Program-made: the position numbers and the translations under genes
From: Escherichia phage JMPW1
Sequence record: NC_041874.1
Strand: one strand, 5' to 3'
Length of the DNA stretch: 49,628 nt
In this document: positions 1 to 49,628 of the stretch, piece by piece
Position numbering within the stretch: the first letter of the stretch is position 1
Layout: every line of letters starts with the position of its first letter
The notes under the pieces: model-generated
Seen by the model: only the letters and a program-made list of their open reading frames with translations
Database searches by the model: none
Told to the model about the DNA's origin: nothing

Positions 1-102
1 ATTGCATGGTTTGCAACAGTTGGTTGATTTGTTGCTTAGATTGCAATGATTGTGAGAGGGGGGGATCTAGTGTTGCCCGGTTCGCCTGGTAGTCATCTCC
101 AT

Positions 103-121
103 TTTTAGCAAAAAGTGCTAT
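103..121 (-). promoter_or_regulatory. Conserved box, minus orientation (reads ATAGCACTTTTTGCTAAAA on - strand), at left genome end
   Basis: Plus-strand TTTTAGCAAAAAGTGCTAT matches the box family found at about 25 gene boundaries. Confidence 0.4.
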
Positions 122-136
122 CGATTACACTTTACC

Positions 137-165
137 TTGTCACAGATGTAATATTTGTCTAGAAT
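137..165 (+). promoter_or_regulatory. Sigma70-type promoter TTGTCA-17 bp-TAGAAT
   Basis: -35 TTGTCA at 137-142, 17-nt spacer, -10 TAGAAT at 160-165, read directly. Confidence 0.5.
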
Positions 166-225
166 CGCACTTGTGACAAAATTACACACTGTGACGCCTC
201 TAAATATACATATAGATATATGTAT

Positions 226-242
226 CTATATAATATATATAG
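226..242. repeat. 17-bp AT-rich motif CTATATAATATATATAG, copy 1 (exact second copy at 30755-30771)
   Basis: Identical 17-mer read in both AT-rich control regions. Confidence 0.7.
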
Positions 243-524
243 TGTTTTCTTTATTTATATATATAGATAATTATATTGTAATAGTTGTGTATAGTTGTCT
301 TACATTGTCTAGCGTACTGTTGGCATATTTCTATCTGCATGTTTATATATACAGTACTTTTTTGAGAGCTATATATTTCTATAGTGACTCTAGACAGCTA
401 GACAAATGTTACACAGCTTAATATCGGCTCGCAGTCATTGACAGCTCTGTATCGCACTGTCACAATGTCAATTGTTGACACATTATGACGCCATTTACAC
501 ACGAATAGACAAAGAGGATATATT

Positions 525-1129: not shown

Positions 1130-1324
1130 ATGGAAACGCAAATTGACGTAGTGGTTGTTCAGCGAGACTCAACTCATGAAAAGGGTCTGTTTAAGAAGGG
1201 AACGGAAATCACGATCGACCTTGAGGATATGGTTGCTTATCACTCTGGACTTACCTGGAACGTGGTGCGCGTAGGCAGCGACTATAAACTCAAAGGCTTT
1301 AACACTTACTTTGCAGAGGCTTAA
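1130..1324 (+). CDS. hypothetical small protein (64 aa)
   Basis: ORF downstream of cassette with RBS GAGAAAACGAAG. Confidence 0.5.
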   Translation: METQIDVVVVQRDSTHEKGLFKKGTEITIDLEDMVAYHSGLTWNVVRVGSDYKLKGFNTYFAEA

Positions 1325-29348: not shown

Positions 29349-29654
29349 ATGGCGTACGGTATATCAACTTGGGACGCAAATGGCGTTTATAATAACTATG
29401 GAATTAAGCCTGTTACGGTTGTTGGTTGGAACTTTTTGTCAGCAGGACAGAATTCAGCATCGTTCAGCTATCAAGTTCCTCCTGGTATGCATGTGAACTA
29501 CGTTATAAGCCTTGACGATGGCGCCATTAGTGGGCCTGGCAGGAAAATTATTGCTAGCGGTAATACGATAACAGTAACGCCAACAAACTCACCTGGGCCA
29601 AACGTGTACCCATCATCAAACTGTTACTTAATAGCATATCTGGAGAATGATTAA
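29349..29654 (+). CDS. hypothetical tail-associated protein (101 aa)
   Basis: ORF trimmed to ATG after GGAGGA. Confidence 0.4.
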   Translation: MAYGISTWDANGVYNNYGIKPVTVVGWNFLSAGQNSASFSYQVPPGMHVNYVISLDDGAISGPGRKIIASGNTITVTPTNSPGPNVYPSSNCYLIAYLEND

Positions 29655-30343
29655 TGTCATACGGTGCTTTTATAGATGTAAACGGAAACCCATTCATAAC
29701 CCCGTTATCCACGCCATTCGCCTTATATGAGAGAGGGGAAATTCAATCAGTAAATGTTAGTGGTTCACAGGTTGCGGAGAGATATGTTCGGATACCTACA
29801 GGTGTTCCGGTTATAGCTTTTTGCAAAACAACAAACACGCAGCAGGGGACCGCGCTTTCAGCCTTTACTTTCAGAAGCGGACCCAATGTTGGAACTGTTT
29901 ATATAAGGGGGACAAATCCAGCAAACCAATCATACACGCTAACATACTACATATTTGCCATATTTGAGCAGTCACTACCGAGCTGGGGTATGGCAATATG
30001 GGATTCGTCAGGAAAGCTAGTGCTGACAAATGAGACAAAAGTCCTTAGTGATTTGGTTACAATCGGCACTCCTGGATACGCTGGAGGTGGATTAAACATA
30101 GACACAACACTCAGCGGAAGCTACGCAGTTGTTCCAACTATACTTGGCAACTATCAAATTGTTATTGGCAGGCTGCCAACTGGGCAACCCATAATAGGAA
30201 ACTCAACAGCAGGCAGCTCATGCAGGTACAACGGGAGCGCAACTAGGATAAATGCAGCAGCAACCACAGCGGCAGGTCAGATAATGAACACCACGAATAA
30301 TGGAAATATCATAACAGCAATCAACACAGCAGCGTATGACTAA
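29654..30343 (+). CDS. hypothetical tail-associated protein (229 aa)
   Basis: ORF; T/N/G-rich composition. Confidence 0.4.
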   Translation: MSYGAFIDVNGNPFITPLSTPFALYERGEIQSVNVSGSQVAERYVRIPTGVPVIAFCKTTNTQQGTALSAFTFRSGPNVGTVYIRGTNPANQSYTLTYYIFAIFEQSLPSWGMAIWDSSGKLVLTNETKVLSDLVTIGTPGYAGGGLNIDTTLSGSYAVVPTILGNYQIVIGRLPTGQPIIGNSTAGSSCRYNGSATRINAAATTAAGQIMNTTNNGNIITAINTAAYD

Positions 30344-30366
30344 GCCCCTTGCGGGGCTTTTCTTTT
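30343..30366 (+). terminator. intrinsic terminator ending late operon
   Basis: AGCCCC-TTGC-GGGGCT then TTTCTTTT. Confidence 0.65.
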
Positions 30367-30592
30367 ATATCGAGCAATCGTGAGACTTGAAGTTTTTCTC
30401 TGATACGTAGTTGAATGAGAATGGGTATCCAGCACGCAATAGCATCTCCTCTCCGCGCATCTTAGATCCAAAAACGTAAACCGAGTACTCTGCGCCTCCT
30501 GATTCATAAATTGCCGTACAAGTGCGCTCAGGCATCGATGAGCAACCAGTCAGGATGAATGCCGCAGCGATAATGGTGATTAACTTTTTCAT
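30365..30592 (-). CDS. small lipoprotein, candidate superinfection-exclusion protein (Cor/Llp-like)
   Basis: Signal peptide ending in lipobox LTGC; lone reverse-strand gene downstream of tail genes; own sigma70 promoter. Confidence 0.45.
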   Translation of the reverse strand: MKKLITIIAAAFILTGCSSMPERTCTAIYESGGAEYSVYVFGSKMRGEEMLLRAGYPFSFNYVSEKNFKSHDCSI

Positions 30593-31116
30593 TTGTATGT
30601 CCTCGTCGTTAGTGTGATTGCATTGTATGTCGCATTTACTTTTATTGCAATAGCACTATTACAATTTTTTCGTGTAACAGGTGTCTATTTTTGTAACCGG
30701 AGCGGGTGTTACAAAATCCACCCCATCCGACCGCAGAGGGATATGATAAAAACTCTATATAATATATATAGATAGATAATATTTAATTTTAGCTTTATAT
30801 ATAATTATTGTTGTGTAACAGTTGTCTATTGTGTAACTGGTGATTTGATTGATTCGTCAAATTTCTATCATATATGTTCAAAATTTAATCAATATGGATT
30901 CTACTTGTAGCTATCTCTGTATTTCTAAGAAAAAGCGGTTACAAGTATTACACAGTAGACATCACATAAAAATAGACTTAAGCCATTGATTCCGTTAATG
31001 CTGGTTGTAACTTGAGCGATATAGACACGCTATTACACACCAATTACATGTATCCGATTGACTAAACGCTGTTAATGGCTATAATGGATTCATCGTAAAC
31101 GAAGGAGATAAACGCA
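30593..31116. promoter_or_regulatory. Divergent AT-rich control region with iteron-like repeats (candidate origin or early control region)
   Basis: No convincing ORF; direct repeats GTGTAACAG(G/T)TGTCTATT at 30672-30689 and 30813-30830; CTATATAATATATATAG at 30755-30771; several TTACACA motifs. Confidence 0.5.
31058..31085 (+). promoter_or_regulatory. Sigma70-type promoter TTGACT-16 bp-TATAAT for recombination operon
   Basis: -35 31058-31063, -10 31080-31085. Confidence 0.55.
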
Positions 31117-32181
31117 ATGTTCCAAGTATTCACATCAAGTCAGCTTTCTAATGACGAGTATCATAGCAACGAAGGTTGGGCGGCAGAGTATGTAAGCGGT
31201 TCGAGCCTTGCAGAAATTTATCAGACTTGCCCGGCTAACTGGCGATTCAAGAAGAACGAGACGACTAAAGCGCTGGAGTTTGGTACTCAGTCGCACACCA
31301 ACTTTGAGAGCCGAGATCTGTTTACTGCATCGTATGCGCGTTGTCCGGCTCCGGCAGAGTTTAAAGATCTCATTACTTCGCAGGCGGCGCTGGCAGCAAA
31401 ATTAAAATCTTTTGGCCTGAAAGGTACATCCGGTAAGCAGTACCCGGACCTCATCAAAATGATGGTTGATTGTGGCGAAGACCTTAACGTTCAATACCTG
31501 ATTGAACTGATCGCAGAGGCTGAGGCGCGCGCTGAAGGAAAGAAACTCGTCGACGCTGATAAATACGACGCCTGCATGAAGATGAGAGCTATACTTGAAC
31601 AGAACCCCGATCATGAAGCGTGCATCAACAGCGAAACAGCGCAGCGTGAAATCTCAATATTCGGTGAAATATCCGGCGTCAAGGTTAAGGTTCGACTAGA
31701 TCATCTTGACTACAAAGAGAATGTACCAGGTCGTGTACTGACTGGTTATGATGAGAATGGTGATCCGGTATTTGAAGACGTAATTTTCCCGGAAGCACTG
31801 ATTATCACAGATTTCAAAACTACGATGAGCGCCAACCCGTTAGAGTTCCCGAGACTGGCATACAATCACGGTTATTACCTGAAGATGGCATTGCAGCATG
31901 ACCTGCTACGTCGCGCAATCCAGGCTGGCGCTTTTGAAGGAAACTTCCCGGAAGATATTCCGATCGTAGTTCGATTGCTTGCGCAGGAGAAAAAAGAGCC
32001 TTATATCGCACTGGCTTACCGTATGACTATGGAGCAAATCAGGATCGGTCGTAACCAGTACATTAGCGTAGTCCACACTTACAAGGCTTGCTCTGAAATG
32101 GATGTTTGGCCTGGGTACGCTGGCGACGCAAGCGAGATCGAACTTGAAACGCCATCATGGGTGCGTTACCAAAATAAGTAA
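31117..32181 (+). CDS. putative recombination exonuclease
   Basis: First gene of exo-ERF-SSB module; D..D/E.K-like ITDFKT segment. Confidence 0.5.
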   Translation: MFQVFTSSQLSNDEYHSNEGWAAEYVSGSSLAEIYQTCPANWRFKKNETTKALEFGTQSHTNFESRDLFTASYARCPAPAEFKDLITSQAALAAKLKSFGLKGTSGKQYPDLIKMMVDCGEDLNVQYLIELIAEAEARAEGKKLVDADKYDACMKMRAILEQNPDHEACINSETAQREISIFGEISGVKVKVRLDHLDYKENVPGRVLTGYDENGDPVFEDVIFPEALIITDFKTTMSANPLEFPRLAYNHGYYLKMALQHDLLRRAIQAGAFEGNFPEDIPIVVRLLAQEKKEPYIALAYRMTMEQIRIGRNQYISVVHTYKACSEMDVWPGYAGDASEIELETPSWVRYQNK

Positions 32182-32255
32182 ACGGCACAAATAGCTAAAC
32201 AAATAATTAATGAGGTGTTATAATGCACCTCATACACCAATCAGGAGAAGTTAAG

Positions 32256-32903
32256 ATGCAATTATCACCAGAAACAAACGAAATCCTTCCTGCACTGTTC
32301 AATGCTCGCAACAAATTCGCGAAAGCAAAGAAGGACGCTAAAAACAATCACCTGAAAAACTCATACGCAACTCTTGATGCAATGATGGCGGCAGTAAGCC
32401 CAGCACTAACCGATAACGATATTATGATCCTGCAATCAATGCTGGATACCAGCACTGAAACAACTTTCCATCTTGAAACTATGCTTATTCACAAATCCGG
32501 GCAGTGGGCCAAATTCTTCATGATGATGCCGATTGCAAAGCGCGATCCGCAAGGCGTAGGTTCCGCAATGACGTATGCTCGACGTTACTCATTAGCCGCA
32601 GCGCTGGGGATTAGCCAGAGTGATGACGATGCTCAGCTTGCAGTGAAATCTGTCAAGGACTGGAAAAAAGAACTTGATGCGTGTGAAGATATCGAATCAC
32701 TGAAAGAGGCATGGGCTAACGCTTACCGCCAGACGGACACGGCAAGCAAGTCAATCATTCAGGATCACTACAACGCACTTAAGGCTAAGTTTGAGATCGG
32801 TAAAGCTCGTGGCATTCGCCCGGCGCAACCGGAACAGAAAAAACAGGTTGAAGCAACGAGCGCGAAGCCTGTACAATCTCAATCAATCACCAACTTCGAA
32901 TAA
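32256..32903 (+). CDS. erf: ERF-family single-strand annealing protein
   Basis: Motif GVGSAMTYARRYSLAAALGI; adjacent to SSB and exonuclease; start at ATG 32256 after CAGGAGA. Confidence 0.65.
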   Translation: MQLSPETNEILPALFNARNKFAKAKKDAKNNHLKNSYATLDAMMAAVSPALTDNDIMILQSMLDTSTETTFHLETMLIHKSGQWAKFFMMMPIAKRDPQGVGSAMTYARRYSLAAALGISQSDDDAQLAVKSVKDWKKELDACEDIESLKEAWANAYRQTDTASKSIIQDHYNALKAKFEIGKARGIRPAQPEQKKQVEATSAKPVQSQSITNFE

Positions 32904-32948
32904 CCATCAGGGCGGCTTCGGTCGCCCATAAATTTTAGGAGAGAAATA

Positions 32949-33365
32949 ATGCATATTATCACTGGCGAGATCCGCAAAGAACCTAAGATTCTTGAACGTA
33001 ACGGCGGCAATACTTATATCATCGAACTGGCAGAAAGCTATAAGCCTCGCGATGGCGATCGTGAATACACCAACTACACATTCTTTTTTAGCGATGGTGG
33101 AAAGCCTGGCCTTGCTGACTGGTATCGTGAAGCGTTCCAGGTTGGTCGCGTAGTATCAGTGTCGTGCGAAACTCTGAAAATCTCATCCCGTGAGCACAAC
33201 GGAACTGTTTACAATTCATTGCAGGCCGCTGATTTTCCTAAGCTGGTATTCAGTCAGCGAGGACAAAGCAATCAACAACAGCGATCGCCTCAGCAACAAC
33301 AGCGAACTCAACAACAACCACAACCGAACCATCAGTCAACATTTGACGATGATATCCCATTCTAA
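32949..33365 (+). CDS. ssb: single-stranded DNA-binding protein
   Basis: Gln/Pro-rich linker and acidic C-terminal tail DDDIPF. Confidence 0.8.
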   Translation: MHIITGEIRKEPKILERNGGNTYIIELAESYKPRDGDREYTNYTFFFSDGGKPGLADWYREAFQVGRVVSVSCETLKISSREHNGTVYNSLQAADFPKLVFSQRGQSNQQQRSPQQQQRTQQQPQPNHQSTFDDDIPF

Positions 33366-36340: not shown

Positions 36341-36793
36341 TTAACTAAAAATGCTATTGGTCGTTCCGATATCTTCCTTCTTCACGACGCGCATAAATTT
36401 CTTGTTCTTGCATCGCTTCTCAAGGCACTTGCCGTTACCGTCAAACTTCAGGTCGAATCGCAACCATGCGGCACGAAATCCTTTGCACCCCTGTCGGCGG
36501 TAAGCGCGATGCGCAGCTTCAGCGCCTTGCCATGAAATCATATTTCGATCTTTCCAGCCTTGCACCGTCTGATTGCTAACTTTTAGAGCCTTTGCGCAGG
36601 CCGCAGGGCCGCCGTAATATTCGATAAGAGCATCAAGTCGCGCTCGCAGTCCGGCGCGTGTTTCTTCTTTATGAATATAGAACCCGCAACGCTGTCGAGG
36701 CTTTTTATCTTTACCGCGCCGTGTTCCGTTGTTACCATTGATGTGACGTTTATCGATTTTACCAGTTGATTCTGCGATACGTTGAATACTCAT
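36341..36793 (-). CDS. putative helix-turn-helix DNA-binding regulator
   Basis: HTH-like AACAKALKVSNQTVQGWKD; basic protein in divergent replication control region. Confidence 0.4.
   Translation of the reverse strand: MSIQRIAESTGKIDKRHINGNNGTRRGKDKKPRQRCGFYIHKEETRAGLRARLDALIEYYGGPAACAKALKVSNQTVQGWKDRNMISWQGAEAAHRAYRRQGCKGFRAAWLRFDLKFDGNGKCLEKRCKNKKFMRVVKKEDIGTTNSIFS
36342..36358 (-). promoter_or_regulatory. Box, minus orientation, upstream of primase
   Basis: Plus-strand TTAACTAAAAATGCTAT; overlaps stop of regulator gene. Confidence 0.4.
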
Positions 36794-36805: not shown

Positions 36806-36861
36806 ATAGCACTTTTTGCTAAAAACGTTTACTTTATGCCGTGTATTATAGCGTAAACGTT
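36806..36861 (+). promoter_or_regulatory. Promoter cassette for helicase operon: box + IR AACGTTTAC/GTAAACGTT
   Basis: Box 36806-36825; IR arms 36824-36832 and 36853-36861 enclosing TATTAT. Confidence 0.55.
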
Positions 36862-36886
36862 ACAACGATTCAAAGGATTAATAGCC

Positions 36887-49589: not shown

Positions 49590-49628
49590 ATTCTGATTGC
49601 GATTGATTGCAAATGATGAAACGTGATT

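Follow-up and report, generated by a model that had tools for sequence, protein, structure and literature searches.

Where does a T1-like phage begin to replicate its DNA? The origin of these phages is unknown and a search for it failed, recent genome papers on the family reporting neither an origin nor iterons (PMC11447400, PMC7718038); in the literature on the origin, iterons and transcriptomes of T1 and the Drexlerviridae, we found only statements that the origin is unknown. Here, we address the question through a non-coding region of Escherichia phage JMPW1 (NC_041874.1). The window analyzed is the whole stretch of 49,628 nucleotides, and all positions refer to it unless another phage is named. 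The region, which we call element C, occupies 30593-31116 between cor and the recombination operon exoVIII-erf-ssb (exo-erf-ssb), and a preliminary description had read it as a replication origin. Because ~1.1 kb around the gap matches Escherichia phages IME167 and phi2013 at 99.9% identity and phage T1 at 93%, and because the gene order equals that of the T1 record throughout, we take the window to be a complete Tunavirus genome (T1-like, Drexlerviridae).

Comparison with relatives makes it close to certain that the region is a conserved, putatively protein-binding cis element and one of a pair, the partner being an element L near the start of the sequence. To the reading in which element C serves as one of two replication origins and is coupled to the early sigma-70 promoter of exo-erf-ssb, we give a probability of roughly 0.45; among candidates for the origin of T1-like phages, element C is the best to date. 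The observations behind the preliminary description hold (a non-coding region, repeats beyond chance, an AT tract, adjoining recombination genes, and a strong promoter), while the function it proposed has become more plausible through comparison and no more than that. The gain in plausibility arises because the element is kept in every relative examined, its core is one of the two least stable stretches of the genome, its repeats shift with lineage under a constant arrangement, and inverted arrays surround AT-rich DNA in the manner of known origins. In kind, element C is an ordinary iteron-plus-AT-rich element.

Repeat sites and AT-rich core of element C

The region between the Cor-like gene and the recombination operon had been described as ~520 bp of non-coding DNA, and it is present as such, with a length of 524 bp. 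Its features are as follows.

30593-31116, no strand: element C, the entire non-coding region from cor (minus) to exoVIII (plus) (open reading frame [ORF] list and sequence)
30622-30650, minus strand: weak sigma-70-like promoter candidate for cor, TTGCAA-17-TACAAT, 9/12 (putative, from a consensus scan)
30643-30664, no strand: imperfect palindrome ATTGCAATAGCACTATTACAAT with the 7-mer ATAGCAC, 9/11 matches per arm (read from the sequence)
30672-30697, plus strand: site triplet 1, GTGTAAC - TGTCTA - TTGTAAC, centers 9.5 bp apart, holding 18-mer copy 1 (site map)
30690-30715, no strand: perfect inverted repeat TTTGTAAC-N10-GTTACAAA (sequence)
30716-30740, no strand: spacer without constraint (column variation among Tunavirus)
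30742-30845, plus strand: AT-rich core, candidate DNA-unwinding element (nhmmer profile match, E = 3e-17)
30813-30837, plus strand: site triplet 2, GTGTAAC - TGTCTA - GTGTAAC, holding 18-mer copy 2 (repeat search, site map)
30852-30893, no strand: AT-rich imperfect palindrome, near-invariant, between the plus- and minus-oriented triplets (repeat search)
30938-30961, minus strand: site triplet 3, TTGTAAC - GTGTAAT - TGTCTA (site map)
31005-31049, minus strand: site group 4, TTGTAAC (plus) at 31005-31011, then TGTCTA - GTGTAAT - ATGTAAT (minus) at 31022-31049 (site map)
31058-31085, plus strand: sigma-70 promoter P_exo for exoVIII-erf-ssb, TTGACT-16-TATAAT, 11/12 (consensus scan)

The two 18-mers put forward as iterons, GTGTAACAGGTGTCTATT (30672-30689) and GTGTAACAGTTGTCTATT (30813-30830), do lie 141 bp apart at these places. 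With up to three mismatches allowed, the genome holds three copies against 0.17 expected, a number reached by none of 100 shuffles; the third copy (397-414, minus strand) sits within element L. The 18-mer is not the iteron unit, however, since the site map shows each copy to be just the first two sites of a three-site group. Short motifs, among them those that had been noted, are likewise enriched: seven of the 27 genome copies of TGTAAC/GTTACA fall inside the 524 bp (binomial p ~1e-8), as do 4/9 of TTACACA, 4/15 of TGTCTA, and 11 of the 112 copies of YGTAAY (p = 4e-8). Counted as TGTAAY/TGTCTA, element C carries 15 sites. They form four triplets of ~7-bp sites (GTGTAAC, TTGTAAC, GTGTAAT, TGTCTA) with centers 8.5-11 bp apart, two triplets per strand. 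Triplets 1 and 2 bracket a 92% AT tract, the plus and minus sets face each other across the palindrome at 30852-30893, and group 4 stops 9 bp short of the P_exo -35 hexamer.

The AT-rich core spans ~90-100 bp in each copy and is rich in (TA)n and TTA runs; at 30742-30845 it is almost invariant in Tunavirus. Its 30757-30806 portion (92% AT) and its counterpart at 227-276 are the least stable 50 bp of the genome. A 17-mer had been described as shared AT-rich sequence; the sharing is real, and the shared word is an 18-mer, TCTATATAATATATATAG, at 30754-30771 and 225-242.

Could the region instead encode something? A small protein (the 46-codon ORF 30849-30989) or a non-coding RNA is hardly credible as the explanation. 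That ORF is open at equal length in 14 Tunavirus sequences and is annotated as CPTT1_049 in the T1 record AY216660, but it starts with TTG, has many amino-acid changes, clustered in the second half, and is interrupted by stops in the relatives L025 and L026, which still keep the DNA element. A second ORF, 30593-30775, is frameshifted in many relatives, and an Rfam scan of 29500-32000 returned no match at E <= 1. An ORF would also explain neither the arrays nor the second copy.

A second copy and conservation across the Drexlerviridae

The preliminary description had treated element C as a single region. Its features stand, but a homologous second copy, element L, lies at ~100-520.

100-524, plus strand: element L, homologous second copy (stability, shared 18-mer, profile match, site map)
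138-161 (plus) and 391-414 (minus): site triplets of element L, with TGTCTA/TGTAAY/TGTCAC sites (site map)
204-286: AT core of element L (profile built from C cores, E = 5e-9)
438-466: sigma-70-like promoter of element L (consensus scan)

By nearest-neighbor stability, the two least stable 200-bp windows of the genome are 200-399 in L (z = 5.6) and 30735-30934 in C (z = 5.3), with the next best at z = 2.85. Besides the common 18-mer TCTATATAATATATATAG, L and C are ~70-75% similar over ~75 bp, and a left module at 133-187 aligns by eye at ~60% with 30671-30725, both 17 nt from the core. The non-coding region that contains L, the other large one of this genome, reaches from a leftward operon ending at ~49467, across the sequence ends, to the rightward gene at 525; the last and first positions of the 49,628-nt sequence are contiguous in phage SH6. 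Element L stands upstream of the left-arm early operon, and it lies inside the 2.8-kb terminal repeat annotated in T1. The first protein downstream, of 171 aa, belongs to phrog_11083, a PHROG shared with T1 ST77, and none of the nine proteins scanned from the first genes downstream of L (this phage, T1, KP36, IME253, and CF1) matched a DNA-binding family. Further along this arm, the small early protein at 1130-1324 (plus) matches Pfam PF25180 ("phage antiviral trigger protein Gp54", E = 5e-36).

The pairing extends beyond this genome. A profile hidden Markov model made from eight cores, all from upstream of exoVIII, finds exactly two significant places, C and L, in each of five complete genomes (four genera). 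The E values of the L copy are 1e-16 in IME253, 6e-12 in KP36, 5e-10 in CF1, 1e-9 in T1, and 5e-9 in this phage, while the next best match anywhere is 0.002. The two places rank 1 and 2 by instability in KP36 and CF1 and 1 and 3 in IME253, and the two KP36 copies have a ~50-bp identical stretch in common. In IMG/VR, the core is present upstream of exoVIII in 45/45 contigs, whose exoVIII relatives are 42-100% identical; in 44 of these 45, 245-303 bp separate the end of the core from the ATG, with intervening sequence that cannot be aligned between genera. Core orientation follows the downstream operon, and KP36, with inverted recombination genes, has an inverted core.

In representatives of Tlsvirus, Warwickvirus, Webervirus, Rtpvirus, and Rogunavirus alike, exoVIII is preceded by 410-500 bp of non-coding DNA (31-35% GC), whatever the other neighbor may be: a tail J gene or a primase gene, each on the same strand, or a gene that runs divergently. 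The description of the region as "divergent" is therefore right for this phage and does not hold as a general trait, given the same-strand upstream gene in Tlsvirus and Webervirus. Across Tunavirus, element C is 93-98.5% identical, even where cor has been replaced by another gene; in those relatives, identity picks up again at ~30542-30592. Element C travels with the exo module. As to the swap itself, SH6, pSf-2, and ISF001-type phages carry an unrelated lipoprotein gene (plus another gene) in place of cor, with the recombination breakpoint at the 5' end of cor (~30542) and the intergenic element still 98% identical.

Within the element, constraint is uneven. Among 13-14 Tunavirus sequences, 7.9% of columns vary in 30741-30892 (AT core, triplet 2, and central palindrome), compared with 64% in the spacer 30716-30740, 12% in the promoter region, and 20-30% in the other site clusters. 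In exoVIII, 54% of third codon positions vary and 2-4.5% of first and second positions, so that 30741-30892 is as conserved as codon positions 1-2 and the spacer behaves like synonymous sites. Site positions are less variable than the rest of the intergenic region (11/94 vs 98/430, p = 0.017), and in the inverted repeat at 30690-30715 the arms are conserved and the 10-nt spacer is variable. In all genera, a further conserved block stands 20-45 bp to the left of the core, reading GCGCAAAATTT / GTGACAAAATT / GTTACAAAATC (30706-30722 and 171-187 here; also KP36, swan01, L025, and L026). Kept in genera with different iterons, this block of the GCGCAAAATTT type may be recognized by a conserved factor, perhaps one of the host.

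The repeats themselves change with lineage. In this phage, C plus L hold 9/15 genome copies of TGTCTA and 7/9 of TTACACA. In KP36 (Webervirus), the enriched word is GTAAGAT, with 13 of 19 copies in the two elements (p = 1e-17), laid out as 16-bp palindromes GTAAGAT-GA-ATCTTAC plus triplets at 9-10 bp. L025 has an exoVIII 80% identical and an intergenic region only ~55% identical, in which the module GTGTAAC-N3-TGTCTA-N4-TGTAAC is kept with changed spacers; L026 carries TGTAAT ten times, and Rtpvirus and Rogunavirus have ATGTAAC, CGTAAC, and TGTATAC with moderate enrichment. In element C of T1, the TGTCTAT half reads CGTATAT or TGTATAT, leaving GTGTAAC as the only conserved part. A common "GTAA" theme across the lineages is a reading by eye. 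Element L varies even between close relatives: T1 has three tandem CGATTAACA units with a 9-bp period at 398-424, just upstream of the rightward promoter, where this phage has TAGACA-TAGACA-GTTACAC, and SH6 shows a third arrangement of L. Evidently, close relatives can swap the flanking arrays of L and keep the core.

These comparisons bear on whether the region is a mere AT-rich spacer upstream of promoters, decorated by chance repeats and bound by host nucleoid proteins (H-NS, Fis, IHF). H-NS typically targets AT-rich DNA with many TA steps, which would suit the core. The repeat statistics, constraint at the level of codon positions 1-2, the lineage-specific repeats, and the presence of exactly two copies of the element per genome all argue otherwise, and we rank this as the least credible of the explanations. 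A distant-mode search of 30640-31060 against plasmids and complete E. coli genomes gave no match, so nothing suggests that the element has been borrowed by a satellite or plasmid.

Early promoters and the candidate binding protein

The genes that flank element C, and the gene for the candidate binding protein discussed below, are as follows.

30365-30592, minus strand: cor, flanking the 524-bp gap
31117-33365, plus strand: downstream operon exoVIII-erf-ssb (ORFs; T1 annotation)
31117-32181, plus strand: exoVIII (ORFs; T1 annotation)
32223-32903, plus strand: Erf-like annealing protein (ORFs; T1 annotation)
32949-33365, plus strand: SSB (ORFs; T1 annotation)
36341-36793, minus strand: Cro-fold helix-turn-helix protein, homologue of T1 gp23, candidate repeat binder (sub-threshold P22_Cro/YdaS matches)

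The promoter TTGACT-16-TATAAT reported for element C is confirmed at 31058-31085, where its 11/12 match is the top sigma-70-like site of the genome. Sites of at least 10/12 include three in L (137, 205, and 438), one in C (31058), and one at the regulator/primase operon (36873). Just three sigma-70 promoters have been reported for phage TLS, P01, P51, and P57 (PMC11447400, Suppl. Table S1), and P51 is the counterpart of P_exo. Because our sigma-70-like sites match these three, two of the three early promoters presumably read by host RNA polymerase fall at C and L. At the third, that of the regulator/primase operon, no genus shows an AT core or a site array.

A second promoter type appears to be present in the genome. 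Approximately 25 boxes of the form ATAGCAC-N3-TTGNTAAAA are followed ~18 nt later by a TATAGT-like -10 hexamer (examples at 1055, 1794, 2815, 36806, and 39315 on the plus strand and at 121, 45973, 48105, and 48569 on the minus strand), and they resemble a promoter class of the phage's own, distributed over the early arms. They correspond to repeats of 21 nt reading ATAGCAC...TAAAA that have been described for TLS, T1, and Rtp and are unexplained in TLS (PMC11447400). Element C shares with these only the 7-mer ATAGCAC at 30650, without their second half: the copy there reads ATAGCACTATTACAATTTT and lacks the TTGNTAAAA part that defines true boxes. The palindrome ATTGCAATAGCACTATTACAAT had been said to overlap the cor promoter and to contain the box core; the overlap with the promoter-like site is there, while the box core was an over-reading of the 7-mer.

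Since one of only three early sigma-70 promoters is located at the element, a purely regulatory role is a serious rival to the origin reading, although we think it unlikely to be the whole account. In this rival, the element is a control region for early promoters and nothing else: the arrays would be operators for a phage regulator (e.g., the Cro-fold gp23-like protein) that switches the L and C promoters off or on, and the AT core would be an upstream supercoil-sensitive or bent element setting promoter strength, with no replication role. C and L hold the best sigma-70-like promoters of the genome, and the sigma-70 promoters of TLS sit only at L, C, and the regulator/primase operon; yet the third early promoter does without core and array, with not one site in KP36 and CF1. 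The last site of group 4 ends 9 bp from the -35 of P_exo, and in L, sites fall on the hexamers of a promoter-like site at 137-165, whereas most sites of C lie 100-400 bp upstream of the promoter. The conserved core orientation and ~270-bp distance to exo would fit such control, but the most constrained 150-bp block, at 170-320 bp upstream of the -35, is too distant to be an UP element. The 16-bp KP36 palindromes are typical of dimeric helix-turn-helix operators, the Cro-fold protein is conserved family-wide, and L repeats differ between close relatives. Operators would not, however, need an extreme AT core in exactly two copies per genome across subfamilies, and Tlsvirus and Webervirus, which have no leftward gene there, retain the left array.

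Which protein might bind the sites? All genera encode a gp23-like protein of 130-200 aa between the primase and an SF2 helicase, with sub-threshold matches to P22_Cro/YdaS. Its scaffold and N-terminal basic arm are invariant, and the recognition helix varies by genus; motifs seen in all genera are DKR..NGNNG..R..D.K.R in the basic arm and FD.NGK...RC at the C terminus. The protein at 36341-36793 is no more than a candidate binder of the repeats. In a comparison over ~40 contigs, helix type and repeat type match only loosely, in a broadly lineage-linked way that is confounded by common descent. The gene is encoded with the primase under a sigma-70 promoter, whose spacer contains a single TTGTAAC (36859-36865) in this phage and T1. 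As an autoregulatory site at the regulator's own promoter, it was set aside: it is not conserved, and nothing comparable was found in KP36, IME253, and CF1. The SF2 and DUF3987 helicases were also considered as specificity factors and rejected, as both are conserved over their full length and have no hypervariable domain. Neither the Cro-fold protein nor the DUF3987 helicase matched anything in a sequence search of the PDB.

A role in recombination or packaging is very improbable. The element would then be an entry or processing site for RecE/Erf in concatemer formation or an accessory site for terminase, as might be suggested by the position of C next to exo-erf-ssb and of L a few hundred bp from the start of the T1 record, within its terminal repeat. 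We know of no need for specific sites in RecE/Erf-type systems, ~30 kb separate C from the genome end of the T1 record, and a separate set of GATTGCA/TTGCAA repeats at the sequence ends looks more terminase-like. These GATTGCA/TTGCAA/GATTG repeats are dense at 49590-49628 and 1-60, exactly at the start of T1 and related records, and the run may be a pac region or bind the small terminase. Within element C, GATTGCA is found at 30616 and 30643 as well.

The origin reading, its parallels and its meaning

The combination of inverted, helically phased arrays, a meltable core, lineage-specific sites, independence of the upstream neighbor, two copies, and nearby recombination genes would be expected of an origin. 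The element adjoins recombination genes, and in Webervirus, it is near the primase gene as well. If element C is an origin, an early phage DNA-binding protein would coat the site arrays, the Cro-fold protein encoded with the primase being the top candidate. Negative supercoiling behind the early sigma-70 promoter (P_exo, plus P_cor in Tunavirus) would aid melting of the core; the phage SSB, helicase(s), and P4-type primase would load next, and host polymerase would then take over. Protein binding, unwinding, and initiation at element C are steps that we infer. Because the right-hand array ends so close to the P_exo -35, the same complex probably also modulates exo-erf-ssb transcription, and the origin and early-promoter control readings are compatible with each other.

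Several points weigh against an origin. GC skew tracks gene orientation and transcription and carries no origin signal. There is no DnaA box (TTATNCACA, <=1 mismatch) in 30593-31116 and no GATC site in element C, so that the element is without the DnaA-box and GATC cluster of a DnaA-dependent oriC-type origin. No initiator of the Rep, lambda-O, DnaA, or P4-alpha C-domain type was recognized, and the sole candidate binder shows the Cro fold characteristic of transcription regulators. Neither do its helices follow the repeats closely: L025 and L026 have the same helix and favor TGTAAC and TGTAAT, respectively, while T1 and L025 have different helices and both have TGTAAC. Repeat enrichment is not significant in Tlsvirus. 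Element L of T1 has mainly GATTAAC (six copies) and CGTAAT (four copies), unlike its C, which makes a single initiator awkward. Finally, the fixed orientation and distance of the core relative to the downstream operon, and the position of C and L at two of three sigma-70 early promoters, fit a promoter-linked function equally well.

Known systems offer partial parallels. The ori and crr regions of phage P4 (NC_001609 annotation) resemble element C: their short sites, of 8 bp, stand in groups of two or three with ~10-bp spacing, point in both directions, and adjoin AT-rich DNA. P4 has two separate cis regions with the same sites, like C and L in this phage and in KP36. In contrast to P4, C and L are ~30 kb apart and have a long AT core in common, and the T1 copies carry partly different repeats. 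P4 also has the alpha helicase with its C-terminal origin-binding domain, of which no homologue was found in T1-like genomes: tblastn with P4 alpha residues 251-777 against five genomes gave no match, and only the primase domain matches, the T1-type primase being homologous to the N-terminal primase domain of P4 alpha. In Tlsvirus, the sites flanking the core (Citrobacter phage CF1, 10353-10372 and 10590-10610) read TGTTCCAC/TGTTCACA and, inverted, GTGAACA/TGGAACAC; this is the same word as the P4 type-1 origin repeat (TGTTCACC/TGTTCACA), with too few copies for statistics.

Origins of SaPI/PICI elements consist of short lineage-specific iteron arrays flanking an AT-rich stretch, and Bacillus phage SPP1 has two origin copies, oriL and oriR, bound by one initiator. 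These origins lie beside or inside a recognizable initiator or helicase gene, whereas neither C nor L adjoins one. Lambda ori resembles element C in its repeated sites beside an AT-rich tract, and a dependence on nearby transcription is plausible here; however, it lies inside the initiator gene O and has four 18-19-bp direct iterons, while element C is non-coding with ~7-bp inverted sites, and no O-like protein is present. The authors of the TLS study sought lambda-like repeats and found none (PMC11447400). The OR/OL operators of Cro and CI in temperate phages are alike in forming two separated site sets for one helix-turn-helix protein at early promoters, with a Cro-fold protein encoded here and palindromic 16-mers in KP36. 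They overlap promoter hexamers, a trait that L may share at 137-165, and span tens of bp; here, 12-15 sites are spread over ~400 bp around a 100-bp AT core, and, in a further difference, the regulator's own promoter bears no array in T1-like phages.

A more specific version of the origin reading, in which L and C are two origins (or an ori with a crr-like partner) fired by a Cro-fold helix-turn-helix protein recruited as initiator and encoded in the primase operon, behind one of the three early host-type promoters, is improbable. If it were true, one early protein would time the transcription of exo-erf-ssb and of the left arm and would open both AT cores, and this initiator and origin logic would be of a type so far undescribed in tailed phages.

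We came across no account of the paired element in the literature that could be searched, which did not include the 2004 T1 genome paper. T1 belongs to the seven classic T phages, and where and how its DNA replication starts was never established; the T1-like family also matters as a laboratory contaminant and as a therapy candidate. With two precisely placed candidate sites, present family-wide and divided into defined sub-elements, and with a candidate for the protein that binds them, the origin question is now directly testable. If the element turned out to be only regulatory, it would define the early-promoter control architecture of a phage family, and a 150-bp non-coding block would still be marked as selected as strongly as protein-coding positions.

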